Of a stretch of DNA of 64,000 nt, positions 1-63,145 are shown one piece after another. Source of the stretch: Escherichia coli. GTDB lineage: Bacteria; Pseudomonadota; Gammaproteobacteria; Enterobacterales; Enterobacteriaceae. A program made the translations under genes and the position numbers. How positions within the stretch are numbered: position 1 is the first letter of the stretch; every line of letters starts with the position of its first letter. Under the pieces are notes generated by a model. The model did not search any database, was not told where the DNA came from, and saw only the letters and a program-made list of their open reading frames with translations. Location: assembly GCF_048403405.1 (NCBI RefSeq), contig NZ_CP183129.1. The stretch is one strand, 5' to 3'.

Positions 1-3000
1 TTGCCCGTTCAGTGTCACCGTAATAGTGGTGCCCGCTGGCTGATTGCTGGTGCCGGAAATTTGCAGATCCGCGCCTTTTTCGGTGGCGTTAATTATGTCA
101 TCGGTAGCGATGGTGTTAATGCCAATGGTTGGCGCGGTAAGGTTAACGGTGACCGTGTGCGTTTCGCTGTCGCTATTACCTGCCGCATCGGTAACGGTCG
201 CCATCACGGTTTGCGGGCCGCTACCCAGCGCCGTGACATCCGCCGCCGGAACGCCGACGCTCCAGTTGCCGGAGGCATCCAGCGTCGTGGTGTAGGTTTT
301 ACTGTTTAGCGTGACGGTGACGACATCCCCCGCTTCTCCGCCAGTGCTGGAACCGGAAATCACCAGCGCCTGCCCGTGTTCGGCGGCGTTAATAATATCG
401 TCGCCCGCAATGGTGTTGATGGTAAGTACCGGAACGGTGAGATCCACCGCCAGATTATGCGTGGTGCTCGCCGGGTTGCCCGCTTTGTCATTGACCGTGG
501 CGGTCAGGGTGTGGCTGCCATCGGTCAATGCCTCAAGATCTGCCGCCGGAATATTAATACTCCAGCTACCGTCGGCCTGTACCGTTGCCTGATACGTCTG
601 CACGGTCGGGCTATTGAGCGTTATCGTAACAATCTGCCCTGCCTCGGCAGTGGTGCTGCCGCTCACCGTCACACCCGCATCGGCTTCGCTGGCGTTGACG
701 ATATTGTCGCTGGCAACGGTATTGATAATGATGGTCGGGGCACTGCTATCGACGCTGTAGTTATGCACCGCCGAGGCGCTATTGCCATTAATATTGCTGA
801 CGCTGGCCTGCGTGGAGGCGCTGCCATCGGTTAATAACGCTAAATCGGCAGCGGGAACGGTGGCACTCCAGCTACCATCGCTCGCCACGCTGGCAGTGTA
901 ATTTTTCCCGCCAAAGGTGACGGTGACCGTTTGCCCGGCTTCTACATTTGTGGTGGTGCCGGAAAGGGTTAAATCAGCGCCTTTTTCTGCGCCGTTAATC
1001 ACATCGTCCGTGGCGATAGTGTTGATGGTAATAGCCGCCGGAGTGAGATCCACCGTTACCGGATGCGTAATGCTTATCGGATTTCCGGCGCTACTTTCCC
1101 CGGACACGGCAATATTAATCGTCCCCGCAGGCCAGGCGCTAACCTGCGCCGCCGTGACGCCCACGCTCCAGCTACCATCGGCCTGCACCGCAGTGGTGTA
1201 TTCCACATTATTAATTGTGACGGTAAGCGGCGTGCCTTCAGCCAGCCCCGAGCTGCTGCCGCTGACCACCAGCGCCTGCCCGTGCTCGATGATATTGACC
1301 ACATCATCGCCTGCCACCGTATCGATCCGCAGACCGGGCAGATTGGCGTCGATGGTGATATCCCGCGTGCCGCTGCCGGTGTTGCCGTTTTGATTGGTGA
1401 CCGAGGCGCTCACCGTTAAATCGCCATTACCCAGCGCCTGAATATCTGCCGCCGGAACGCTCACGCTCCAGGTGAGATTGCTGCCCACCGTCGCCGTATA
1501 AGTATTACCGCCCAACGTAATAGTTACCGTGTCGCCATCTTCCGCTCCAGTAACCTGCCCGCTGATGGTTTGCGCGACGCCCGCTTCGGCGGCGTTAATA
1601 ATATCGTCGGTTGCCACCGGGTTAATGGTCACGCCGGGCAGCGCGCTGTCAACCAGCACGTTATGGCTGGCGGTGTTGCTGTTGCCGATACTGCTGGTTA
1701 CCGCCGCCGTTACCGTGTAGTTGGCCTGGCCCAGTGCGGTTACCGCCGATGCCGGAACGGTGACGCTCCAGTTGCCGGAGGCGTCGGTCGTGGTGGTGTA
1801 ATTTTGCCCGTTCAGCGTCACGGTGATGGCGGTATTAACAGGCTGATCGCTGGTGCCGGTAATCTGGACATCGGTTCCTTTTTCGCTGGCGTTAATCACA
1901 TCATCGCCCGCAATGCTGTTAATGCCGATAAGGGGCGCTGCGGTATTGACCGTGACGGTCAATGACTGGCTGCCGCTGTTTCCTGCGCGGTCGGTTACCG
2001 AGACGCTGACAGGATAACTGCCGTCCACCAGTCCGCTGACAACGGAAGCCGGAACACCCAGACTCCAGTTGCCGGAACCATCCACCACCGTGGTGTAATC
2101 GGAATTATTTAACGTAACGGTGACAATATCGCCCGCCTGCGCGCCAGTAACCGTGCCACTGATGATTTGCGCCTGGGTGTGTTCCGGCGTGTTGATGACG
2201 TTATCGGTCGCCACCGGATTAATGGTCACCACCGGAGGCGTGGCATCGACCAGCGCCACCCGTGAAACGCTGGTCGGGTTACCGGCGACATCGTTCACGC
2301 TGGCGGTGACCGTGGCGTTGCCGTCAGCCAGTGCGTCAACATTGGCGGCGGGAACGGTCACGCTCCAGGTGCCGTCGGACTGCACGATGCCCTGATAGGT
2401 TTGCCCATTCAACGTAACGGTCACCGTCTGCCCCGGCTGAGCGTCGGTGGTGCCGGTGATGGGCAAATCCTGCCCGCTTTCGGCGGCGTTAATGATGTTA
2501 TCAGCGGTCAGTGGATCGATGCTCAACGCCGGGGCCTGGCTGTCGACGGTAATGGTGCGGGAGGTGTTGCCGGTATTGCCGCTGAGATCCGTCACAGAAG
2601 CGGTAATCGCCACCGCGCCGTCAGGCAGATTTCCCATCGCGGCGGCAGGTACCGTCAGACTCCAGGAGCCATCAGCCTGCACGGTAGTGGTAAAACTCTG
2701 TCCAGCCAGGGTTACTGTGACGGTTTGTCCTGTCTCGGCCTGTTGAGTGCTACCGGTAAGGGTCAGTGGCGCACCTTTTTCTGCGCCACTGATAATGTCA
2801 TCGCCGGAGACGGTGTTAATGGTGATCAACGGAGAAACACCGACCAGCGTGATTGCTCGAGACGCCGCGCCAGTATTTCCTGCAGCATCTGTCACGGTGA
2901 CGAAAATCGTATTGGCTCCGCGATCCAGCGTGCGGGTTACCGCCGGGTCCAGCGCCACATTCCAGCTGCCATCTGCCAGCACGATGCCCGTCAGGACATG

Positions 3001-3740
3001 AGTGCCCAATTTCACCGTTACCGTATCGCCAGGAGAAGCACCGCTGACTTGTCCGGAGATGATCTGCGCGACGGCCTGCTCGGCATTATTAAGAATATCG
3101 TCGCCCGCCACGGTGTTAACGCTGACCACGGGTGCTGAGGTGTCTACCGTGAAATTCGCGCTGTGGCTGGTGGTGTTTCCTGCCCGATCGCTGACACTGG
3201 CATTGACAGCATAATTACCCTCCGCCAGTGCCTGGACTTCCGTGGCAGGCAGCGTCACTTGCCAGGTTCCGTCGCTACCGACGGTTGCTGTATGGCTTTT
3301 CCCGTTGACGGTCAGTGTTACGGTTTGCCCCGCTTCTGCATTCGACGTGCCGCTCAGTACCAGCGCGACGTTATGTTCCGCAGCACTGATGATGTTGTCC
3401 TGAGCGATGGTGTTGATGGCAAGCGTTGGCGGTTGGGTATCGACCGTTAGCAGCTGCGCGCCGGTGACCGTATTGCCTGTGGCGTCTTTCCCACTGACCA
3501 GCACCGCCTGATTCCCTTCGCCTAACGCCTGTGCATCGGCGGTCGGCACCTGCACGCTCCAGGCACCGTTAGCGCCTACGCTGGTGGTGTAGGTTTTGCC
3601 GTTTAGCGTAACGGTGAGTTCTGTTCCCTGCGCCAGATGGCTACTGGTGCCAGAAAGCGTAAACCCGGCGGCCTGTTCGCTGGCGTTAATAATGTTATCG
3701 CCTGCGGTGGTGGCAACCTGCACGCTGGCCTGACTATTGT
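1..3740 (-). repeat. Tandem array of ~300-bp coding repeats (Ig-like domains) inside the adhesin gene; repeats diverged (~40-60% aa identity by eye)
   Basis: Recurring ~100-aa motif in the hand translation; array start approximate. Confidence 0.7.
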
Positions 3741-4548
3741 CGATGGTTAACGTTATCGAACCGGCGTCAGTGATGGTACTGCCGACAATTTGCACCACTG
3801 ACCAGGTATGTTCACCTGCACTTTGCGTGGGTAACGAGACACTCCAGTGACCGTTGTTGTCTACCTGAGTACTGGCAATAGTATTGCCGTTACTGTCTTT
3901 AATCTGAATAGTCGCCCCCGCCTGCCCGCTGCCGCTAAAGGTTGGCGTGGTGTCATCGGTGATGTCATTGGTGGCGAGAATGCCGCGCTGATCGCCCTGA
4001 TTATCGGTAACTAAGAATGATGGTGTGGCGTTGCCAGGCTCAGCGGGTGGCGTAGGGTTATTAATCACTTCCGTTTTCGAGTCGCCATCACCACCGCTTG
4101 CCAGCAGTGCACCAAGCGCACCACCACCTACCGCCGCCCCCGCCAGCCAACCCCACGGGAAGGCGCTGGTCTGAGCAACGGTATCAAGAAATGGCGCAAT
4201 GCTTTCAATCGCGGTGGTCTGGGCAGTCAGTTCTACGGGGGCTAATCCACCCGCAGCAGTATCGGCAAAGGTGACGTGGGTGAGCTGTTGTCCATCGGCA
4301 AACACCAGTTCCGATTGTTCAGCGGTATTCGCCGCTTGCAGGAAATAACCGTTGCAACGGATCACCGTGCCGTCCTGCATATAGATCAGCAGGTCATTTC
4401 CTTCACGGACGTAACGCGAAACGGCAGAGGCCTGAGCATGAACCTGCACCACGGAAGGCTCATAAATAACAACCGTGACGTCGCCAGGATTAATCAGCGT
4501 TTGTTTGACGGATGTTTTACGCGAAATAACATCAATAATCAGGCTCAT
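1..4548 (-). CDS. Giant surface adhesin / type I secretion substrate, N-terminal ~1515 codons (3' end beyond window start); BapA-like N-terminal domain followed by tandem Ig-like domains
   Basis: Minus-strand frame open from ATG at 4546-4548 (AGGAAT RBS 6 nt upstream) to position 1 with no stop. Hand translation: MSLIIDVISRKTSVKQTLINPGDVTVVIYEP..., then 13 or more ~100-aa repeats (TINTIAGDDIINAAE..ISGTS..GQTVTVTLNG.TYTATV.ADGSWSV.VPAAD..AL.DG..TV.ASVTD.AGN). Plus-strand track ORFs here are antisense artefacts. Confidence 0.85.
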   Translation of the reverse strand, partial: MSLIIDVISRKTSVKQTLINPGDVTVVIYEPSVVQVHAQASAVSRYVREGNDLLIYMQDGTVIRCNGYFLQAANTAEQSELVFADGQQLTHVTFADTAAGGLAPVELTAQTTAIESIAPFLDTVAQTSAFPWGWLAGAAVGGGALGALLASGGDGDSKTEVINNPTPPAEPGNATPSFLVTDNQGDQRGILATNDITDDTTPTFSGSGQAGATIQIKDSNGNTIASTQVDNNGHWSVSLPTQSAGEHTWSVVQIVGSTITDAGSITLTIDNSQASVQVATTAGDNIINASEQAAGFTLSGTSSHLAQGTELTVTLNGKTYTTSVGANGAWSVQVPTADAQALGEGNQAVLVSGKDATGNTVTGAQLLTVDTQPPTLAINTIAQDNIISAAEHNVALVLSGTSNAEAGQTVTLTVNGKSHTATVGSDGTWQVTLPATEVQALAEGNYAVNASVSDRAGNTTSHSANFTVDTSAPVVSVNTVAGDDILNNAEQAVAQIISGQVSGASPGDTVTVKLGTHVLTGIVLADGSWNVALDPAVTRTLDRGANTIFVTVTDAAGNTGAASRAITLVGVSPLITINTVSGDDIISGAEKGAPLTLTGSTQQAETGQTVTVTLAGQSFTTTVQADGSWSLTVPAAAMGNLPDGAVAITASVTDLSGNTGNTSRTITVDSQAPALSIDPLTADNIINAAESGQDLPITGTTDAQPGQTVTVTLNGQTYQGIVQSDGTWSVTVPAANVDALADGNATVTASVNDVAGNPTSVSRVALVDATPPVVTINPVATDNVINTPEHTQAQIISGTVTGAQAGDIVTVTLNNSDYTTVVDGSGNWSLGVPASVVSGLVDGSYPVSVSVTDRAGNSGSQSLTVTVNTAAPLIGINSIAGDDVINASEKGTDVQITGTSDQPVNTAITVTLNGQNYTTTTDASGNWSVTVPASAVTALGQANYTVTAAVTSSIGNSNTASHNVLVDSALPGVTINPVATDDIINAAEAGVAQTISGQVTGAEDGDTVTITLGGNTYTATVGSNLTWSVSVPAADIQALGNGDLTVSASVTNQNGNTGSGTRDITIDANLPGLRIDTVAGDDVVNIIEHGQALVVSGSSSGLAEGTPLTVTINNVEYTTAVQADGSWSVGVTAAQVSAWPAGTINIAVSGESSAGNPISITHPVTVDLTPAAITINTIATDDVINGAEKGADLTLSGTTTNVEAGQTVTVTFGGKNYTASVASDGSWSATVPAADLALLTDGSASTQASVSNINGNSASAVHNYSVDSSAPTIIINTVASDNIVNASEADAGVTVSGSTTAEAGQIVTITLNSPTVQTYQATVQADGSWSINIPAADLEALTDGSHTLTATVNDKAGNPASTTHNLAVDLTVPVLTINTIAGDDIINAAEHGQALVISGSSTGGEAGDVVTVTLNSKTYTTTLDASGNWSVGVPAADVTALGSGPQTVMATVTDAAGNSDSETHTVTVNLTAPTIGINTIATDDIINATEKGADLQISGTSNQPAGTTITVTLNGQ

Positions 4549-4656
4549 AATGGCATTCCTGATAAATGGCGCATATCCTTAGCGAGTCCATTTATCTAAA
4601 TAAGACAAAGGTAATCACTTAACAACGAGGCATACCTGATATTAATAATGGCAGGA

Positions 4657-6012
4657 TTATTTCAAGTCGGGTAAGTCGTTGTATAAGCCCTGTTTAATTC
4701 CCGCTAATGGAATAAGGTTATTCACCGCAGCGGCATAATTTACGGCGGCGACCCAGCCATCATAATTGGCATTTATTTCAGCCGATTGCGCCTGAAAGAC
4801 ATCTTGCTCGACGGTTAATAGATCATTCAGACTGCGTTTGCCCAATTTATATTCATTTTGGTACACATCTCGCGTTTTGTGCGCACTTTCGGATTGTGCT
4901 AAACCGGCTTCTTCGCGACCCCGTGCGCCTGTCCAGTTGGCATATGCCACAGACGCTCGTTGCAGCACATCCAGTTTTGCCTGTTCGACCTGCGAGGCAG
5001 AGATTTTTTGTTGCCCTTCGGCCTGTTGCACCTGGGCAGAAACCGCGCCGCCCTGATACAGCGGCGCGTTAACGTTCAGTTGTAGCTGATCATCCCAATA
5101 CGAGCGGTCGCTGGTCTGGTAGCGCGTTTTGCCCCCCTGAATACTCAGCGTTGGCCAGTATTGCGCTTTCGTTTTTTCCACGCCGTACTGTGCTGACTGG
5201 CGTAAGTTTTCTGCCGCCAGCACCAGCGGGATGGACTGGTAATCAATATTTTTCAGCGATACCGGCTGCTCGGCTAATTCAGCAGGTGGCGCGGCTATCG
5301 CCTCCGGCTGTACGCCAGTGAGCACCGCCAGTTGCGCTTTGGCGCTTGCCATCTGCGCCTGATATTGCTCCAGCGTTGAGCGCATTCCGGCAATGCGCGT
5401 CTGGGCCTGTAATTCATCCGACGACGAGTTCAGGCCAGCGTTAGCACGCAATGCTGCCATGTTGTAGACGTTTTCCAGCGAGTGAATATTGCGTTGAGCC
5501 GCATAGCACAAAGCCTGATAACGACTGACTTCCATATAGGCAGTTGCCGTTTTCTCTGCAACATCGGTTAATGTTGCCATCAATTTAAAGCGGTAGCTGT
5601 CACGGGCGGCAGTTTGCAGTTTGATATCGTTGTTAGTTTTACCAAAGTCATACACCAGCTGTGTCAGGGTTATGCCATACGAAACGTTGTTATCAAGCCT
5701 GCCACTGGAGTCCGTTTGTCGGGACGGTCCCGCATTGCCGGTTAATCCAACGTGCGGATACCAGGCACTTTTGGCTTCATCAATTTGCGCTTCGCCAATA
5801 CCTATCTGCGCCGCCTGTTGAGTGACGTCGGGATTTCGCGCAAAGGCGCGTAATATACTTTCCTGTAAAGATAATTGGGCAACTGGCGTTACCGCTGGGG
5901 CATTCGCCCATTGTGGCAGCGGTGCAGCAATTGCAGCTTCTCCCATCACCATAAAACTTATTAAAAAAATAAACCCATTATTTTTACGGCTTTTAAACTG
6001 GAATCGCGCCAT
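4657..6012 (-). CDS. TolC-family outer-membrane efflux/secretion protein, 451 aa, with N-terminal signal peptide; likely the outer-membrane component for the adjacent adhesin
   Basis: Complete ORF; basic n-region then hydrophobic FIFLISFMVMG and AIA-A signal-peptidase-like site; TolC/OprM-like composition; 108 bp upstream of the adhesin start on the same strand. Confidence 0.75.
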   Translation of the reverse strand: MARFQFKSRKNNGFIFLISFMVMGEAAIAAPLPQWANAPAVTPVAQLSLQESILRAFARNPDVTQQAAQIGIGEAQIDEAKSAWYPHVGLTGNAGPSRQTDSSGRLDNNVSYGITLTQLVYDFGKTNNDIKLQTAARDSYRFKLMATLTDVAEKTATAYMEVSRYQALCYAAQRNIHSLENVYNMAALRANAGLNSSSDELQAQTRIAGMRSTLEQYQAQMASAKAQLAVLTGVQPEAIAAPPAELAEQPVSLKNIDYQSIPLVLAAENLRQSAQYGVEKTKAQYWPTLSIQGGKTRYQTSDRSYWDDQLQLNVNAPLYQGGAVSAQVQQAEGQQKISASQVEQAKLDVLQRASVAYANWTGARGREEAGLAQSESAHKTRDVYQNEYKLGKRSLNDLLTVEQDVFQAQSAEINANYDGWVAAVNYAAAVNNLIPLAGIKQGLYNDLPDLK

Positions 6013-11772: not shown

Positions 11773-12567
11773 ATGGATCTGTTGTACCGGGTAAAAACGC
11801 TTTGGGCCGCGCTGCGCGGTAATCATTACACCTGGCCTGCTATCGATATCTCTCTTCCCGGCAATCGCCATTTTCATCTGATTGGCAGTATTCATATGGG
11901 CAGCCACGATATGGCTCCCCTGCCCACCCGTTTGCTCAAAAAGCTCAAAAACGCCGATGCGCTGATCGTCGAGGCGGATGTTTCCACCAGCGATACGCCT
12001 TTTGCTAATTTGCCTGCCTGCGAGGCGCTGGAAGAGCGCATTAGCGAGGAGCAACTCCAAAACCTGCAGCACATTAGCCAGGAGATGGGCATTTCTACCT
12101 CACTCTTTTCTACCCAACCGCTGTGGCAAATCGCGATGGTTCTTCAGGCGACGCAGGCACAAAAACTGGGGCTGCGGGCAGAATACGGTATCGATTACCA
12201 GCTATTGCAGGCGGCGAAGCAACAACATAAACCCGTGATTGAACTGGAAGGGGCTGAAAACCAGATTGCCATGTTGCTCCAGCTCCCTGACAACGGACTG
12301 GCGCTGCTGGACGATACGCTGACCCACTGGCACACCAATGCACGGTTGCTGCAACAAATGATGAGCTGGTGGCTGAATGCGCCGCCGCAAAATAATGAAA
12401 TAACGCTGCCTAATACGTTCAGTCAGTCGCTGTATGATGTGCTGATGCATCAGCGAAATCTCGCCTGGCGGGACAAATTATGCGCCATGCCGCCGGGGCG
12501 CTATGTGGTCGCAGTCGGTGCACTACACCTGTATGGAGAAGGGAATTTGCCGCAGATGTTGCGCTAA
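11773..12567 (+). CDS. ybaP: TraB-family protein YbaP (264 aa)
   Basis: Complete ORF with AGGGAGG RBS; sequence recognisable. Confidence 0.9.
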   Translation: MDLLYRVKTLWAALRGNHYTWPAIDISLPGNRHFHLIGSIHMGSHDMAPLPTRLLKKLKNADALIVEADVSTSDTPFANLPACEALEERISEEQLQNLQHISQEMGISTSLFSTQPLWQIAMVLQATQAQKLGLRAEYGIDYQLLQAAKQQHKPVIELEGAENQIAMLLQLPDNGLALLDDTLTHWHTNARLLQQMMSWWLNAPPQNNEITLPNTFSQSLYDVLMHQRNLAWRDKLCAMPPGRYVVAVGALHLYGEGNLPQMLR

Positions 12568-12649
12568 AAAAATGGCCAATATCGCTATTGGCCCGTCAAA
12601 GAGGAATTTCATATTTTTATTATTATGCCGTCACTTTAAGCGACGGTGT
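12566..12649 (-). ncRNA. chiX: ChiX (SroB/MicM) small regulatory RNA, 84 nt
   Basis: Reverse complement reads ACACCGUCGCUUAAAGUGACGGCAUAAUAAUAAAAAUAUGAAAUUCCUCUUUGACGGGCCAAUAGCGAUAUUGGCCAUUUUUUU with the CCUCUUUGACGGG seed and terminator hairpin; lies between ybaP and ybaK. Confidence 0.85.
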
Positions 12650-18324: not shown

Positions 18325-18408
18325 GTAGGCATGATAAGACGCGCCAGCGTCGCATCAGGCATCGAGAGCCAAATGCCAGATGCGGCGTGAACGCCTTATC
18401 TGGCCTAC
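18325..18408. repeat. Two REP units in opposite orientation (BIME) between ybaL and gsk
   Basis: GTAGGCATGATAAGACGCGCCAGCGTCGCATCAGGC and GCCAGATGCGGCGTGAACGCCTTATCTGGCCTAC match the enterobacterial REP pattern. Confidence 0.8.
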
Positions 18409-22753: not shown

Positions 22754-24628
22754 TCAGGAAACCAGCAGCTGGTTCATACGACGAATAAACAGGTTCGGAT
22801 CTTCCAGCGTGCCGCGTTCTGCCAGCAGCGCCTGATCCAGCAGCAGTTCTACCCACTCGCTGAACTTCGCTTCATCTTCAGTATCTGCCGCACGTTTCAC
22901 CAGTACGTGATCCGGGTTCAGTTCGAAGATGTATTTCACTTCTGGCACTTTCTGGCCCGCCGCAGCGAACAGTTTCGCCATCTGAGTGCTCATTTCGTCC
23001 GCGTCGGTCGAAACGATCGCTGGCGTATCGGTCAGACGGTGAGTCAGACGGACATCTTTCACGCGCTCGCCGAGCAGGGCTTTCACACGGTCGATGAACG
23101 GAGTCAGTGCTTTCTCCGCTTCTTTCGCGCTCTCATCAACTTCGTCAGCCAGTTTTTCCAGCGACTCGTCAACTTTAGACACCGACTGGAACGGTTTACC
23201 GTCGAACTCAGTCAGATAGTTCATCATCCACTCATCGATGCGGTCGGAAAGCAGCAGAACTTCGATGCCTTTCTTACGCAGCAGTTCCAGGTGCGGGCTG
23301 CTCTTCGCTGCCGCATAGCTGTCTGCGGTGATGTAGTAAATTTTCTCCTGCCCTTCTTTCATGCGGGAAACGTAGTCTTCCAGAGACACGGTCTGCGCAG
23401 AAGAATCGGTATGGGTAGAAGCAAAACGCAGCAGTTTGGCGATCGCTTCCTGGTTAGCGAAATCTTCCGCCGGACCTTCTTTCAGTACCAGGCCAAACTG
23501 TTGCCAGAAGGTCTGGTATTTTTCCGCATCGTCTTTCGCCAGTTTTTCCAGCATTTGCAGCACACGCTTGGTCAGCGCATTGCGCAGGTTACGCGTTACC
23601 GTGCTGTCCTGGAGGATTTCACGGGAAACGTTCAGCGGCAGATCGCTGGAGTCAATCAGACCACGCACGAAGCGCAGATAGTTCGGCATGAACTGTTCTG
23701 CGTCGTCCATGATGAACACACGCTGAACATACAGTTTCAGACCGTGTTTATGATCGCGGTTCCACATATCCCACGGTGCCTGAGACGGAATGTACAGCAG
23801 GCTGGTGTACTCCTGCTTACCTTCAACACGGTTGTGGCTCCAGGTCAGCGGATCGTTAAAGTCGTGGGCGATGTGTTTGTAGAACTCTTTGTACTCTTCA
23901 TCGGTGATTTCCGACTTGTTACGAGTCCACAGCGCCTGCGCTTTGTTGATTTTTTCCCAGGAGATAACGGTTTCGCCGTCTTTCTCTTCGCGTTTTTCGA
24001 TCTCTACCGGCAGCGCGATATGGTCGGAGTATTTGCTGATGATGGAACGCACGCGCCAGTCATCGAGGAACTCGTCTTCGCCTTCACGCAGATGCAGGGT
24101 GATTTCAGTACCACGATCTTCTTTGGTGATATCGGCAACGGTGTATTCACCTTCGCCAGCCGATTCCCAGAAGACGCCATTTTCTGGTTTTTCGCCTGCC
24201 GCGCGAGTACGCACGGTCACTTTGTCGGCCACGATAAACGCAGAGTAGAAACCAACACCAAACTGACCGATCAGCTGGCTGTCTTTCGCCTGGTCAGAAC
24301 CCAGGGATTCGAGGAATGATTTGGTGCCGGATTTAGCGATAGTCCCCAGATGGTCAATCACTTCGTCGCGGGTCATCCCCACGCCGTTATCGGAGATGGT
24401 CAGCGTGCGCTTGTCTTTATCGAAAGAGACACGAACGCGCAGTTCGCCATCACCTTCGTACAGGTCCGGGTTAGAGAGCGCGCGGAAACGCAGCTTGTCC
24501 GCCGCATCGGAGGCGTTAGAGATAAGCTCACGCAGGAAGATTTCTTTATTGGAATAGAGAGAATGGATCATCAGGTGCAGAAGCTGCTTCACTTCTGACT
24601 GAAAACCACGAGTTTCTTGTCCTTTCAT
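22754..24628 (-). CDS. htpG: Hsp90-family chaperone HtpG (624 aa)
   Basis: Complete ORF; sequence recognisable. Confidence 0.96.
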
Positions 24629-24679
24629 GTAGGTCTACCTCAATAATGCCATTTTAAGGTTAAAAACAGGATGAGGGAG

Positions 24680-24708
24680 AGATGGGGACAAGGGGGAATA
24701 ATTTCAAG
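24680..24708 (-). promoter_or_regulatory. sigma32 heat-shock promoter of htpG
   Basis: Minus strand reads CTTGAAA-N14-CCCCATCT, about 50 nt upstream of the htpG ATG. Confidence 0.75.
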
Positions 24709-24737
24709 CGAGAGCAGGTGATCCTGCTCTCGTTTGC

Positions 24738-25342
24738 TTAAAAACGAATCTTATGACGCCCGGCAAGGGAGTGTGACAGCGTGGTGCCATCGACCATTTC
24801 CAGTTCGCCGCCAACCGGTACGCCATGAGCGATTCGGCTGGCTTCCACGTCATATTGCGCGCAAAGCTCGGCAATGTAGTTAGCGGTAGCTTCACCTTCA
24901 ACCGTGGGGTTGGTGGCGAGGATCACTTCAGTGATTTTTTCCTCTGCCAGACGCTGTTCCAGACGATCAAGCCCGATATCATCCGGACCGATGCCGTCCA
25001 GCGGTGACAGGTGCCCCATCAACACAAAATAACGGCCTGAAAACTGCCCCGTCTGCTCAATGGCGTAGATGTCCGCCGGACTCTCCACCACGCAGATTTG
25101 ACCGTTTTCCTGACGACGCGGATTCGAACAGATGTTACAGACTTCCTGTTCGGTGAAGGTGCGGCAATCGGCGCAGTGGCCGATTTCCGACATCGCCCGG
25201 GTGAGCGCCTGCGCCAGACGCATCCCGCCGCTACGATCGCGCTGAAGTAGCGTGAACGCCATACGCTGCGCCGACTTCGGGCCAACGCCCGGCAGACAGC
25301 GCAGTGCTTCCATAAGCTGTGTTAACAGCGGGCTGGTTTGCA

Positions 25343-25724: not shown

Positions 25725-27656
25725 TCAAATGGGGCGGATACTTTCTTCATCCAGCTCCGCATCGAAGAATCGACGCAGGGTCTGAATATTATTATCCGCA
25801 ATAATGGACTCGCGCGCCTGCGCAAGTTTTTCTTCGTATATCGCCTGACGCCATTCCAGCGGCGTACGCACCGCGGGATTATCATCTTCAACGATAGTCA
25901 GTTCAACCGTTGAACCTTTTAACGTGCTCAACGCTTCAGCCAGTTTTTGCTGTGCGCCGCGGTTGTTCAAATGCCGCTGAGAGGAGCGCAAATGCAGACA
26001 TACTGCGTTGTCGCTCTCCTCTTTCCAGGCATTTAACGCCACCTGTTCGACCAGTTTTGGTAGCGAAAGTTGACTCACCTGTGCCGCCCACGGGTCGCGC
26101 TCAATGGCTTCTGCTGCCAGCTTCGCCGCCAGTTCCGGCGTTTTTTCATGTTCCAGCGCTTTTTTCAGCGCCTTCGGCGTGGCGACCACTTCTTTTTGCT
26201 GCATCACTGGAGTGGTCGCCTTCCAGCGATACGCTTCTTTTTTGGCTGGCGCTTTTTCCAGCGCCGATGGCACCGGACGCGCCTGAACGCGATCGGTGAC
26301 CGAAGCCAGTCTTTCCAGCGCAGCGTTATTCACCGGCCGCGCGCGGGTAGCGGCTGCCGGTTCACTCTTTTTTGCTTTGGTTGCTCCCTGCACGCGCTGC
26401 AACTGCTGGCGCGCCGCCAGCACCTGGCTGGTGGTTTCCGGGAGCGGTACAGTCGGTGCCTGCTGCGGCGCTGATTGCGGTTGCGGCGGCACCTGGGTTG
26501 GCGTCATTACTGCCGTTGGCGCGACGGGCGCAAAGGACTGGCGTGGCACTTCTGGCTCAGGTAGCGGCATACGCGGATGGAACGCCAGAGCGCGAAGCAG
26601 CGTCATCTCAACGCCCATACGGCGGTCTGGCGCATACGGTAATTCTTTGCGACCAATCAACAGCGTCTGATAGTAAAGCTGAATATCCGTCGGCGGTATG
26701 GTGCGCGCCAGTTCACGCATCCGCAGCTCGATAGCGGCCATGTCGTTGCCAAGTGCAGCAGGCGAAAGTTGTACCATCGCAATACGATGCAACAGGCCGA
26801 GCATTTCCACCAGCAACGCTTCCCACTCGATACCACGGGCAGCGGCTTCATTAATCAGCGCCATTACGCGCTCGCCGTTGGCCTCGACCATCGCTTCAAC
26901 CAGCGACAGCGCCTGATCGTCGTCAAGCGTACCCAGCATCGCACTGACCGCCTGAGTTGAAACCTGGCCGTCACCGCTGGCAATCGCCTGGTCGGTCAGA
27001 CTTAAGGCATCTCGCAGGCTGCCTTCAGCGGCGCGCGCCAGTAATTGCAACGCCCGCGGCTCGTGAGCGATATGTTCTTCGTTGAGGATGTGCTCAAGCT
27101 GATGGCGAATTTGCTCGACATCCAGCGCCTTGAGATGGAATTGCAGACAGCGCGACAAAATCGTCACCGGCAATTTCTGCGGATCGGTCGTCGCCAGCAG
27201 AAACTTAACGTGCTCCGGCGGCTCTTCAAGGGTTTTTAACAGTGCGTTAAAGCTGTGGCGCGACAGCATATGCACTTCGTCGATCAGATAAACTTTGAAA
27301 CGACCACGCGCCGGAGCGTACTGGACGTTATCCAGCAGGTCGCGAGTGTCTTCAACTTTAGTGCGCGAGGCGGCGTCGATTTCAATCAGATCGACAAAGC
27401 GCCCCTGCTCGATTTCACGACAGTTATCGCACACGCCGCACGGCGTCGCGGTAATGCCGGTTTCGCAGTTTAGCCCCTTCGCCAGCAGTCGGGCGATAGA
27501 GGTTTTTCCGACGCCACGGGTGCCGGAAAAAAGATAAGCATGATGAATACGCCCTAACGACAAGCCGTTCGCCAGTGCGGTCAGCACATGTTCCTGGCCG
27601 ACGACGTCAGCAAAGGTTTGTGGGCGCCATTTTCGGGCTAAGACCTGATAACTCAT
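25725..27656 (-). CDS. dnaX: DNA polymerase III tau subunit (643 aa, full-length product)
   Basis: Complete ORF; AAA+ clamp-loader motifs. Confidence 0.96.
   Translation of the reverse strand: MSYQVLARKWRPQTFADVVGQEHVLTALANGLSLGRIHHAYLFSGTRGVGKTSIARLLAKGLNCETGITATPCGVCDNCREIEQGRFVDLIEIDAASRTKVEDTRDLLDNVQYAPARGRFKVYLIDEVHMLSRHSFNALLKTLEEPPEHVKFLLATTDPQKLPVTILSRCLQFHLKALDVEQIRHQLEHILNEEHIAHEPRALQLLARAAEGSLRDALSLTDQAIASGDGQVSTQAVSAMLGTLDDDQALSLVEAMVEANGERVMALINEAAARGIEWEALLVEMLGLLHRIAMVQLSPAALGNDMAAIELRMRELARTIPPTDIQLYYQTLLIGRKELPYAPDRRMGVEMTLLRALAFHPRMPLPEPEVPRQSFAPVAPTAVMTPTQVPPQPQSAPQQAPTVPLPETTSQVLAARQQLQRVQGATKAKKSEPAAATRARPVNNAALERLASVTDRVQARPVPSALEKAPAKKEAYRWKATTPVMQQKEVVATPKALKKALEHEKTPELAAKLAAEAIERDPWAAQVSQLSLPKLVEQVALNAWKEESDNAVCLHLRSSQRHLNNRGAQQKLAEALSTLKGSTVELTIVEDDNPAVRTPLEWRQAIYEEKLAQARESIIADNNIQTLRRFFDAELDEESIRPI
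26362..27656 (-). CDS. dnaX: DNA polymerase III gamma subunit (431 aa) made by programmed -1 frameshift in dnaX
   Basis: Slippery A-AAA-AAG at codons 428-430 (plus 26367-26373); the -1 frame reads AAA AAA GAG UGA, adding one Glu then a stop at 26362-26364. Confidence 0.85.
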
Positions 27657-43016: not shown

Positions 43017-43130
43017 GGGTGGGGGCCCTGCCAGCTACATCCCGGCACACGCGTCATCTGCCTTGGCTGCTTCCTTCCGGACCTGACCTGGTAAACAGAG
43101 TAGCGTTGCGGGAGAACCAACAGAGCCCCC
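43017..43130 (-). ncRNA. ffs: 4.5S RNA (signal recognition particle RNA), 114 nt
   Basis: Reverse complement reads GGGGGCUCUGUUGGUUCUCCCGCAACGCUACUCUGUUUACCAGGUCAGGUCCGGAAGGAAGCAGCCAAGGCAGAUGACGCGUGUGCCGGGAUGUAGCUGGCAGGGCCCCCACCC. Confidence 0.95.
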
Positions 43131-57662: not shown

Positions 57663-57853
57663 GGTGTAACAACACTCCGCTGTAGATGACTGTGTACCTC
57701 ACGCAACGTATCGATGCGCGCAAAGGCCTATTGTGACAAGAAACGGGGGCAATTGTCAGCCCACAAGACGCAGAAAGTCACCGAATACAAATAAAAAAGG
57801 CACATCAGTAGATGCGCCCTTGAACTTCGTCACATCCCCACTGGGGACAACGC

Positions 57854-58334: not shown

Positions 58335-60689
58335 CTATTTTGCAGTCACAACCTGCATGCCAGACGGTTCATTTTGCAGCGCCAGAGTCAGAACTTCCTC
58401 AATGCGCTTCACAGGATGAATGTCCAGATCGGCAATTACGTTGTCAGGAATCTCTTCCAGATCGCGTTTATTTTCGAACGGAATTAGCACTGTTTTAATC
58501 CCGCCCCGATGCGCTGCCAGTAGTTTTTCTTTCAAACCACCGATCGGCAGTACCTGACCACGCAGAGTGATCTCACCGGTCATTGCCACATCGGCACGAA
58601 CCGGGTTACCGGTCAGGCAAGAAACCAGCGCGGTGCACATAGCAATACCGGCACTCGGACCATCTTTCGGCGTCGCACCTTCCGGTACGTGGACGTGGAT
58701 GTCGCGTTTTTCGTAAAAATCAGGGTTGATCCCCAGTTTTTCCGCACGCGCACGAACCACCGTTAACGCTGCCTGAATGGACTCCTGCATCACTTCGCCA
58801 AGCGATCCGGTATAGGTCAGTTTGCCTTTACCCGGAACGCACGCGGTTTCAATGGTCAGCAAGTCACCGCCCACTTCCGTCCACGCCAGACCAGTTACCT
58901 GACCGACACGGTTTTCGTTATCAGCGCGTCCATAGTCGAAACGCTGAACACCGAGGTAGTCATGCAGGTTATCACCGTTAATTTCGATATGTTTTAATGA
59001 CTTATCGAGCAGTAACTGCTTAACCGCTTTGCGACACAGTTTGGAGATTTCACGCTCCAGACCACGCACGCCCGCCTCACGGGTGTAATAACGAATAATG
59101 CCGATAATGGCGCTATCGTCGACGGTCAGCTCACCTTTTTTCAGTGCATTACGTTCAATCTGCTTCGGCAACAGGTGACGTTTGGCGATGTTCAGTTTTT
59201 CATCTTCGGTATAACCGGAGAGGCGAATCACTTCCATACGATCCAGCAGCGGTGCCGGAATGTTCATGGAGTTCGACGTCGCGACAAACATCACGTCGCT
59301 GAGATCGTAATCCACTTCCAGGTAGTGGTCGCTGAACGCTACGTTCTGCTCTGGATCCAGCACTTCAAGCAGTGCGGAGGCCGGATCGCCACGCATGTCA
59401 GAAGACATTTTGTCGATCTCATCGAGCAGGAACAGCGGGTTTTTCACGCCCACTTTCGCCATTTTCTGGATCAGTTTACCCGGCATAGAACCGATGTAAG
59501 TACGGCGGTGACCACGGATTTCCGCTTCATCACGCACGCCGCCCAGCGCCATACGGACATATTTACGCCCGGTGGCTTTGGCAATGGACTGACCAAGAGA
59601 GGTTTTACCTACCCCTGGCGGCCCTACCAGGCAGAGGATCGGTCCCTTGATTTTGTTGACACGGCTTTGAACCGCAAGATACTCAAGGATGCGATCTTTC
59701 ACGCGCTCCAGACCATAATGGTCGGTATCAAGGATTTCCTGCGCCTGACGCAGGTCTTTTTTGACCTTGCTGCGCGCATTCCACGGCACCTGTACCATCC
59801 AGTCGATATAACCACGCACTACGGTCGCTTCTGCCGACATCGGAGACATCATTTTCAGCTTCTGCAACTCTGCTTCCGCTTTCTCTTTTGCCTCTTTCGG
59901 CATTTTCGCCGCGTCAATTTTGCGCTTCAGGGCTTCGTTTTCGTCCGGCGCGTCGTCCATTTCACCGAGTTCTTTCTGAATAGCTTTCATTTGCTCGTTC
60001 AGATAGTACTCACGCTGGGATTTCTCCATCTGCTTTTTAACGCGGTTGCGAATGCGTTTCTCAACCTGCAGCAGATCGATTTCCGATTCCATCATTGCCA
60101 TCAGATATTCCAGACGTTCGTTAACGTCGGACATCTCCAGAACGGACTGTTTGTCAGCCAGTTTCAGCGGCATATGTGCAGCAATGGTATCCGCCAGACG
60201 CGCCGGGTCGTCGATGCTATTCAGCGACGTCAGCACTTCTGGTGGGATTTTTTTGTTCAGCTTGATGTAGCCTTCGAACTGGCTGATTGCAGTACGCACC
60301 AGCACTTCCTGTTCCCGCTCATCAATGGTCGGCGACTCCAGATACTCCGCCTTCGCAGAAAAGTGTTCGCCATTGTCAGAGAGCGCAGAAATACGCGCGC
60401 GCTGTAACCCCTCGACCAGCACTTTGACGGTGCCGTCTGGCAGTTTCAGCATCTGCAATATAGAGGCCACGGTCCCGACGGTGAAAAGATCGTTTACACC
60501 CGGCTCATCCGTTGAAGCTTCTTTCTGCGCGACCAGCATAATTTTTTTATCATGGTCCATCGCCGCTTCCAGACAACGGATAGATTTTTCCCGCCCGACA
60601 AATAAGGGGATGACCATGTGCGGATAAACCACCACATCGCGCAGCGGCAATACGGGGATTTCAATGCGTTCAGAACGCTCAGGATTCAT
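58335..60689 (-). CDS. lon: ATP-dependent protease Lon (784 aa)
   Basis: Track ORF 58335..60734 trimmed to [25 protein letters not shown]. Confidence 0.96.
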
Positions 60690-60772
60690 AGAGCTCTCTC
60701 TTAGTTTAATTTCCGCCAGGTAATCAGATGACACGACTGTGCTTCACGCCATCTATTAACATGTACGTCAGT

Positions 60773-60799
60773 ATATGGGGATGTTTCCCCCACATTCAA
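60773..60799 (-). promoter_or_regulatory. sigma32 heat-shock promoter of lon
   Basis: Minus strand reads TTGAAT-N13-CCCCATAT, about 85 nt upstream of the lon ATG. Confidence 0.75.
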
Positions 60800-60876
60800 C
60801 GCCGAGAATAGAGGAAAAATTAAAGGGGAGATAAAATCCCCCCTTTTTGGTTAACTAATTGTATGGGAATGGTTAA

Positions 60877-62151
60877 TTATTCACCAGATGCCTGTTGCGC
60901 TTCCGGCTTGCCATAAATCAGCAACGGCTTGCTTTGACCATCAATTACCGATTCGTCGATAACCACTTTTTCGACGTCTTCCATGGACGGCAGATCGTAC
61001 ATGGTATCGAGCAGTGCGGCTTCTACGATGGAACGCAGGCCACGGGCACCGGTTTTACGCGCCATCGCTTTCTTAGCGATAGCATCCAGCGCCTCGTCAC
61101 GGAATTCCAGATCCACGCCTTCCAAATTAAACAGCGCCTGATACTGCTTGGTCAGGGCGTTTTTCGGCTCTTTGAGGATCTGAATCAGAGCTTCTTCGCT
61201 CAGTTCATTCAACGTTGCGACAACCGGCAGACGACCAATGAACTCAGGGATCAGACCAAACTTGATCAGATCTTCCGGTTCAACCTGCGCCAGCAGCTCG
61301 CCTTCGCTTGCTTTGTCGGACTTCGCTTTTACCGTCGCGCCAAAACCAATGCCGGAGCCGGTTTCTACACGATGGGAAATGACTTTATCCAGACCAGCGA
61401 ACGCACCACCACAAATAAACAGGATCTTAGAGGTATCTACCTGCAAGAACTCTTGCTGCGGGTGTTTACGCCCGCCCTGCGGTGGAACGGCGGCAACCGT
61501 ACCTTCAATCAGTTTCAACAGTGCCTGCTGTACGCCTTCACCGGAAACGTCTCGGGTAATGGACGGGTTGTCTGACTTACGAGAAATCTTGTCGATTTCA
61601 TCGATGTAGACAATCCCGCGCTGCGCTTTCTGTACGTCGTAATCGCACTTTTGCAACAGCTTCTGAATGATGTTTTCAACGTCTTCGCCCACATAACCGG
61701 CTTCGGTCAGCGTGGTTGCGTCGGCCATGGTGAACGGGACGTCCAGCAGGCGCGCCAGCGTTTCGGCCAGCAGCGTTTTACCGGAACCGGTCGGACCGAT
61801 CAGCAGAATGTTACTTTTGCCCAACTCGACACCATTGCTGGTATCGCCGTTGCGCAGACGTTTGTAGTGGTTGTATACCGCGACCGCCAGCACTTTTTTC
61901 GCCTGTTCCTGGCCGATAACGTAATCGTCCAGGTGGTTACGAATTTCATGCGGCGTCGGTAGCGCACTGCGTTCACGATGCGGTGCAACTTCTTTAATCT
62001 CTTCGCGAATGATGTCGTTACATAAATCAACACATTCGTCGCAGATATACACGGATGGACCGGCAATCAGCTTGCGCACTTCATGCTGGCTTTTGCCGCA
62101 AAAAGAGCAATACAGCAATTTGCCTGAGCCATCTTTGCGTTTATCTGTCAT
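60877..62151 (-). CDS. clpX: ATP-dependent Clp protease ATPase subunit ClpX (424 aa)
   Basis: Complete ORF; N-terminal C4 zinc finger, Walker A GPTGSGKT. Confidence 0.97.
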
Positions 62152-62276: not shown

Positions 62277-62900
62277 TCAATTACGATGGGTCAGAATCGA
62301 ATCGACCAGACCGTATTCCACCGCTTCAGGGGCGGAAAGGAAGCGATCGCGCTCGGTATCACGTTCAATCTGTTCTAATGATTGACCCGTATGAAGCGCC
62401 ATAAGTTCATTCATGCGCCCTTTAACTTTCAGAATTTCACGGGCATGAATTTCGATATCGGTCGCCTGGCCCTGGTAGCCGCCCAACGGCTGGTGAATCA
62501 TCACGCGCGAATTCGGCAGGCAGAAACGTTTACCTTTTGCCCCTGCAGTCAGCAAGAAAGCGCCCATCGAAGCCGCCTGGCCCATACAGATGGTGCTGAC
62601 ATCAGGCTTGATAAACTGCATGGTGTCATAGATAGACATCCCGGCAGTGATCACCCCGCCTGGGGAGTTAATGTACAGATAGATATCTTTTTCTGGGTTT
62701 TCTGCTTCCAGGAACAGCATCTGCGCCACAATCAGGTTAGCCATATGGTCTTCAACCTGGCCAGTCAGAAAAATGACGCGTTCCTTAAGTAGACGAGAAT
62801 AGATATCAAAAGAGCGCTCACCACGTGAGGTCTGTTCAATGACCATCGGCACCAGCGCCATATGGGGTGCAAAGTTATCTCGTTCGCCGCTGTATGACAT
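62277..62900 (-). CDS. clpP: ATP-dependent Clp protease proteolytic subunit ClpP (207 aa)
   Basis: Complete ORF; catalytic Ser context GQAASMGA. Confidence 0.97.
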
Positions 62901-63008: not shown

Positions 63009-63145
63009 CATAACAATCTTTTGTTGTTACGCTAACACCGAAAGAGGCTTTTCGCACGGTTCCATGCAAAATTCATGACAAAAAAAAGCCCACCACCTGG
63101 CGGTGACGGGCCTTTGTGCGAATTTAGCGCGTTATGCTGCGTAAA

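Follow-up and report, generated by a model that had tools for sequence, protein, structure and literature searches.

Sigma-32 promoter elements upstream of htpG, lon and clpP in a 64-kb stretch of an Escherichia coli chromosome

Sigma-32 (RpoH) directs RNA polymerase to heat-shock genes through a short bipartite promoter, and elements of this kind stand upstream of three chaperone and protease genes, htpG, lon and clpP, in the stretch of Escherichia coli DNA considered here. The question raised by this locus is whether the three elements are genuine promoters or chance occurrences of a degenerate pattern, and, at lon, whether the conservation of the same bases has another cause. Judged from sequence, the elements are very probably classical RpoH promoters that drive htpG, clpP-clpX and lon. 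Sigma-32 promoters of htpG, lon and clpP are already known and long established; their primary mapping is reportedly due to Cowing (1985), Chin (1988), Maurizi (1990) and Nonaka (2006). The discovery value is accordingly little, as both the promoters and their regulon are textbook material and were to be expected in this genome, and their practical use is that of a positive control (i.e., bipartite sigma-32 promoters recognized by eye to within 1-2 bases).

Layout of the window and position of the promoters

The window, as the whole 64-kb stretch is called here, is a piece of the E. coli chromosome that runs from the siiEA island to tig. Its orientation is reversed with respect to the K-12 map, and it corresponds to the K-12 455-497 kb region, inverted. 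The strain is not K-12; its clpP-lon region is 100% identical to those of strains TUM14771, GN02461, 4621, and MS 69-1, and the gene order from recR-htpG through tig-clpP-clpX-lon-hupB-ppiD is common to K-12 and the window. The gene layout given below was obtained by overlaying the RefSeq annotation of the near-identical strain 4621 on the window, together with the list of open reading frames (ORFs).

1-4547: siiEA, then copA, ushA, gsk, and adk
22754-24628, minus strand: htpG coding sequence (ORF list and RefSeq annotation of the near-identical strain)
58335-60689, minus strand: lon coding sequence (ORF list and RefSeq annotation)
60877-62151, minus strand: clpX coding sequence (ORF list and RefSeq annotation)
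62277-62900, minus strand: clpP coding sequence (ORF list and RefSeq annotation)
63146 onward: tig

Between htpG and lon, the order is recR, ybaB, dnaX; acrRAB, ffs, ppiD, hupB. All heat-shock genes of the window are on the minus strand, and the rpoH gene lies outside the window. Several other features are found along the same stretch. Positions 1-6012 form an accessory island, absent from K-12 at the same position, that adjoins ybaT-glsA-copA and carries the 3' part of the giant BapA-related adhesin gene siiEA (over 20 kb long in strain 4621) and a gene for a TolC-family outer-membrane protein. Minus-strand Rfam matches include the sroB sRNA (12566-12649), naRNA4, a REP-derived nucleoid-associated RNA (18328-18405), the dnaX frameshift element (26328-26392), and the 4.5S SRP RNA encoded by ffs (43026-43122).

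The three promoter elements are composed as follows.

24709-24680, minus strand: predicted sigma-32 promoter of htpG, GCTTGAA-attattcccccttgt-CCCCATCT, N15 spacer; -35 box GCTTGAA at 24709-24703, -10 box CCCCATCT at 24687-24680
60801-60773, minus strand: predicted sigma-32 promoter of lon, CGTTGAA-tgtgggggaaacat-CCCCATAT, N14 spacer; -35 box CGTTGAA(T) at 60801-60794, -10 box CCCCATAT at 60780-60773
63009-62980, minus strand: predicted sigma-32 promoter of clpP (clpPX operon), GCTTGAA-atatggtgatgccgt-ACCCATAA, N15 spacer; -35 box GCTTGAA at 63009-63003, -10 box ACCCATAA at 62987-62980

A preliminary description of this DNA had reported motifs upstream of all three genes without naming a strand. 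All three are present, on the minus strand, and the coordinates it gave are right to 1-2 bases. The general form that it proposed, CTTGAA(A/T) followed by CCCCAT, holds for htpG but departs from the sequence at two points, namely the -35 of lon, which is GTTGAAT, and the -10 of clpP, which is ACCCAT. When compared with the -35 consensus (C)TTGAA(A), agreement is found in GCTTGAAA at htpG, CGTTGAAT at lon, and GCTTGAAA at clpP. The -10 consensus CCCCATnT is matched by CCCCATCT, CCCCATAT, and ACCCATAA, the clpP box having one mismatch that also occurs in ibpA and htpX, two of the ten promoters used for training the matrix described below. The distance from TTGAA to the -10 block is 14-15 nt, within the 13-15 nt spacing and like that of nine of the ten training promoters.

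Each of the three sites lies in the intergenic gap directly upstream of its own gene, is co-oriented with that gene, and is at promoter distance from it (52 nt from the end of the -10 to the start codon for htpG, 84 nt for lon, and 80 nt for clpP). Start sites were placed by analogy with the numbering of dnaKp1 (PMC10216364). On this analogy transcription of htpG would begin near A24672, with a 5' UTR of about 44 nt, that of lon near 60765-60768 (5' UTR about 75 nt), and that of clpP near A62972 (5' UTR about 72 nt).

Hairpins are found upstream of all three promoters.

24702-24743, minus strand: hairpin at the 3' end of recR, after the recR stop codon and with no T-run; the outer stem includes bases of the htpG -35
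60822-60846, minus strand: intrinsic terminator of clpX (hairpin and T-run), readable as a terminator in either direction; the lon -35 follows 20 nt downstream
63084-63115, minus strand: intrinsic terminator of tig, upstream of the clpP promoter; a 14-pair stem followed by T8

Because each promoter stands just downstream of a hairpin that ends the preceding co-oriented gene, each would open a separate heat-inducible unit. The stem of the clpX terminator shows compensatory changes in four of five predicted pairs (55 species). The recR-distal hairpin is very stable (-22.6 kcal/mol, z-score -7.1, with none of 200 shuffles equally stable) and was not called by the terminator scan; it may attenuate or stabilize read-through recR transcripts.

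Matrix scores, chance expectation, and conservation

A loose search pattern, TTGAA-N14-17-CCCAT, has exactly three matches in the 64 kb, and these are the htpG, lon, and clpP sites, where 0.65 would be expected. Three matches were also reached by 5 of 100 shuffled windows, and the case that the loose pattern makes by itself for three promoters is only suggestive. A weight matrix was drawn, not from the window, but from the 300 nt upstream of dnaK, groS, clpB, grpE, ibpA, hslV, htpX, rlmE, yrfG, and prlC of strain MG1655, a training set of ten promoters that are all outside the window. The matrix was built by a two-block Gibbs sampler with random starts and without a seed consensus. Its best solution, which was found repeatedly, is nCTTGAA-N12-15-CCCCATnT and agrees with the published sigma-32 consensus (PMC10216364; PMC3168786).

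The preliminary description had proposed a scan of this kind as a check, with scores below threshold counting against the sites; such scores were not seen. Over both strands (about 128,000 positions), htpG ranks first with 22.9 bits, lon second with 21.4 bits, and clpP third with 19.6 bits, whereas the next-best match in the window reaches 17.1 bits and the 99.99th percentile of all its positions lies at 12.5 bits. Leave-one-out scores of the ten training promoters range from 11.6 to 22.4 bits (median 19.2). When the window was simulated 300 times with a first-order Markov model, the expected number of matches of at least 19.5 bits per 64 kb was 0.067 and the best simulated score averaged 17.2 bits; the Poisson probability of at least three matches at or above 19.5 bits is about 5e-5. 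In the recR-htpG gap, no site other than the htpG promoter reaches 12 bits. This single strong match agrees with ChIP-exo data, in which one predominant RpoH site is found at htpG (PMC9104697).

The fourth-ranked site of the scan (25755-25727, minus strand, GCTGGAT-N14-CCCCATTT, 17.1 bits) is not claimed as a promoter: its -35 is poor (TGGAT), and its score is within chance expectation, as 0.71 matches of at least 17 bits are expected per window. It lies at the 3' end of dnaX, directly upstream of ybaB-recR. Upstream of ppiD, which we take to be a heat-shock gene regulated by sigma-32 and Cpx, no canonical sigma-32 site is present in the region 57663-57853 (minus strand), where the best matrix score is 6.4 bits. 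The closest look-alike before this gene, TCTTGTG-N13-CCCCGTTT at 57768-57741, scores 4.4 bits.

Within the species, the promoters are nearly uniform. A 2.9-kb piece around the lon and clpP sites matches 5424 of 5426 complete E. coli genomes and is 100% identical in several chromosomes, and the 121-nt stretches around each promoter are likewise found in 5424/5426 E. coli genomes. The clpP stretch is at least 99% identical in all 5424 matching genomes. Relative to K-12 MG1655, the clpX-lon and tig-clpP intergenic regions are base-for-base identical, and the recR-htpG region differs by two SNPs, neither of them in a recognition box. One of these, at 24695, is a T-to-C change in the htpG spacer; the other, at 24674, is an A-to-T change about 2 nt before the inferred start. 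A literature search with the exact spacer strings returned nothing relevant.

For the comparison across species, the lon footprint was anchored on the conserved first lon codons rather than on the promoter. One genome per Enterobacterales species was taken, giving 120 loci that include Yersinia, Serratia, Pantoea, Erwinia, Dickeya, Photorhabdus, Xenorhabdus, Providencia, Edwardsiella, Hafnia, and Klebsiella; the count is based on the 118 loci with sufficient upstream DNA. TTGAAT-N13-CCCCATAT is present in 118/118 species, with 55 distinct spacers, and control stretches of equal length within lon reach at most 11.5 bits. The apparent lack of the promoter in Enterobacter sp. R1(2018) (locus L048) was ruled out, since the promoter is found at -301 from the ATG. 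In that locus, an insertion of about 190 nt in the lon 5' leader displaces the conserved promoter (558-858). Upstream of clpP, a site of at least 17 bits occurs in 57 of 73 Enterobacterales species (same loci), and GCTTGAA is nearly invariant. For htpG, anchoring of the same kind on metagenomic contigs shows a site of at least 17 bits at a similar distance in 113 of 118 loci, which together hold 78 distinct promoters. In the -10, CCCC never varies at lon and does so only rarely at htpG. Boxes and spacing are under purifying selection at lon, clpP, and htpG, all with variable spacers, and conserved boxes held at a fixed spacing around a drifting spacer are the signature of a sigma-factor site.

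Overlapping features of the lon promoter

At lon, the bases of the promoter are shared with an insertion-sequence target, a candidate sigma-70 hexamer, and, on the other strand, an annotated RNA family.

60778-60790: IS186 hot spot in the spacer and -10 of the lon promoter, GGGGAAACATCCC, uninterrupted in the window
60770-60775, minus strand: sigma-70-like -10, TATACT, which overlaps the sigma-32 -10 of lon at its 3' end; 18 nt separate it from the common TTGAAT
60761-60856, plus strand: Rfam match to sraA (RF02029), running antisense across the lon promoter and the terminator of clpX; 106.7 bits (gathering score 56)

The IS186 target rule is reportedly G>=4-N3-6-C>=4 (SaiSree, 2001), and GGGGGAAACATCCCC at 60791-60777 has this form, with a G-run, a short spacer, and a C-run. 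In BL21(DE3) (locus L135, 3386-4922), an IS4-like element of the IS421 family (IS186) separates clpX from lon. The 13 bp of GGGGAAACATCCC are duplicated at its two ends, so that TTGAAT is on one side and CCCCATAT is 1.3 kb away on the other. The lon copy of plasmid pEcFELIX533.1 (locus L133) has the same IS186 junction as BL21(DE3). Among the 5424 matching E. coli genomes, the 121-nt lon promoter stretch is contiguous in 5369, and about 55 are without a contiguous copy. Recurrent IS186 insertion at this single site has been described as a source of lon promoter mutations, and the lack of Lon in E. coli B is attributed to it (PMC3045373).

The hexamer TATACT forms, with the TTGAAT of the sigma-32 promoter, a TTGAAT-18-TATACT arrangement with 9 of 12 matches to the sigma-70 consensus, a chance-level count in the scanned region (2 found, 2.5 expected). 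None of the 55 distinct cross-species lon sequences departs from TATA(C/T/G)T, and in other sigma-32 promoters the bases that follow CCCCAT differ. A dual sigma-32/sigma-70 promoter with a composite -10 is a reasonable reading of the lon sequence, in which the same TTGAAT may serve the sigma-70-type TATACT and provide basal lon expression.

The sraA match is a member of its family by covariance-model score, being above the Rfam gathering threshold; no sraA annotation was found in the RefSeq records examined. SraA appears in a published listing of E. coli/Salmonella sRNAs, with its place between clpX and lon (PMC3384567), and 12 of 17 diverse Enterobacterales loci have a family match at the corresponding position. 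When 55 sequences are aligned, nothing is invariant except two blocks, which read as the antisense of the promoter boxes TTGAAT and CCCCATATAnT; the stretch between them varies. From these 55 sequences RNAalifold retains the terminator stem and no other. Within the 5' hairpin of sraA, no pair is changed on both sides and the covariation score equals that of all 500 shuffles, so that compensatory support for the sraA structure was not found. On the plus strand at 60700-60760, nothing convincing as a sigma-70 promoter for sraA was seen by eye and none was returned by the consensus scan.

Three other explanations of the elements can be set against the promoter reading. That a short, degenerate bipartite pattern has simply matched three times by chance, without promoter function, would fit the three loose-pattern matches reached by some shuffled windows, and it would also fit the genome-wide ChIP-exo result, in which 1036 motif instances were counted and RpoH was present on only 52 (PMC9104697), so that most instances are unbound and the motif by itself is weak evidence of sigma-32 binding. 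Yet the full matrix expects only 0.067 matches at the score of the weakest site, all three sites lie between genes, in the orientation of a chaperone or protease gene and at promoter distance from it, and from genus to genus the spacers change but the boxes do not; chance is scarcely credible. Little more credit, and still extremely little, is due to the idea that the sites act mainly as ordinary sigma-70 promoters whose resemblance to sigma-32 sites is incidental. The 9/12 match at lon and the conservation of TATAnT in all species examined are in its favor, as is the abundance of Lon without heat shock and the lack of a rise with extra sigma-32 (PMC4554461). The consensus scan found no sigma-70-type site at the htpG or clpP elements, however, and the CCCC of the -10, which has no sigma-70 role, is nonetheless fixed at lon and almost fixed at htpG; htpG, moreover, is strongly induced by sigma-32 (bioRxiv 10.1101/177030).

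The remaining explanation concerns lon only and attributes the conservation at 60773-60799 to the plus-strand sRNA gene sraA rather than to the lon promoter. The strong RF02029 match, its recurrence at the same place in 12 of the 17 other genera, and the published listing of SraA between clpX and lon speak for it. The invariant columns, however, are exactly the antisense of TTGAAT and CCCCATATAnT around a varying stretch, RNAalifold finds no conserved hairpin there, and only the terminator stem, which also serves clpX, covaries. This explanation is very unlikely, if slightly less so than the two above; the two readings are also compatible, as an antisense transcript can coexist with a promoter. 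Since the invariant blocks are the promoter boxes and the 5' hairpin is without compensatory change, conservation at the lon coordinates is best explained by the promoter.

A further proposal, held tentatively and with the balance tipped slightly against it, is that the cross-genus conservation of sraA merely mirrors the lon boxes and the clpX terminator on the opposite strand and does not come from selection on an RNA, and, relatedly, that the invariant CCCCATATAnT is read by both sigma factors across the Enterobacterales. If sraA conservation is such a mirror image, phenotypes of sraA disruption (e.g., in Salmonella Tn-seq) would really be lon-promoter effects. The lon promoter, the IS186 hot spot, and sraA share 30-100 bases, and for mutation, insertion, or sRNA phenotypes mapped there lon expression should be suspected first.

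Mechanism and relation to known sigma-32 promoters

In the sigma-32 open complex, CTTGAA at -35 to -30 is read by region 4, and CCCCAT at -15 to -10 by regions 2 and 3 (PMC10216364). As is well established, RNA polymerase carrying sigma-32 recognizes the (C)TTGAA of the -35 through region 4 and the CCCCATnT of the -10 through regions 2 and 3, with the boxes 13-15 nt apart, and transcription begins some 10 nt beyond the T of CCCCAT. Titration of DnaK/J and FtsH by unfolded proteins, together with opening of the rpoH mRNA thermosensor, raises sigma-32 and, with it, transcription of these units; each promoter would be a separate heat-inducible entry point. The htpG, clpP, and lon genes of the strain studied here are accordingly predicted to be heat inducible. 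The preliminary description had called the three sites consistent with an intact heat-shock regulon, which stands in the weak sense that three of the roughly 50-70 RpoH control regions are in place; anything more exceeds a window without rpoH.

The consensus has been published as CTTGAAA-13/15-CCCCAT, and in Shewanella, too, htpG, lon, and clpP are predicted sigma-32 targets (PMC3168786); htpG ranks among the most strongly sigma-32-induced transcripts (bioRxiv 10.1101/177030). In one study, the level of Lon protein was not changed upward by rpoH overexpression (PMC4554461), which suggests that induction from the lon promoter may be modest or buffered.

Compared with known systems, the sites of the window are conventional. 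The K-12 RpoH promoters of htpG, lon, and clpP-clpX are the closest relatives, and for htpG the boxes and spacing are the same in the window. With dnaKp1, groSp, grpEp, clpBp, and ibpAp, the window sites have in common the two boxes and the 14-15 nt gap, and the scores are similar (18.9-22.4 bits in leave-one-out for these five promoters; 19.6-22.9 bits for the window sites). In contrast to canonical sigma-32 promoters, lon has G for C before TTGAA and clpP has A for the first C of CCCCAT; lon also has an extra overlapping TATAnT hexamer that is absent from the others. The sraA sRNA (SraA/psrA3/t15) coincides in position with the lon promoter and the terminator of clpX, but on the other strand and as a transcript rather than a promoter. 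Lastly, the plon::IS186 alleles of E. coli B and BL21 have the same 27-nt promoter, which in the window is without the insertion.
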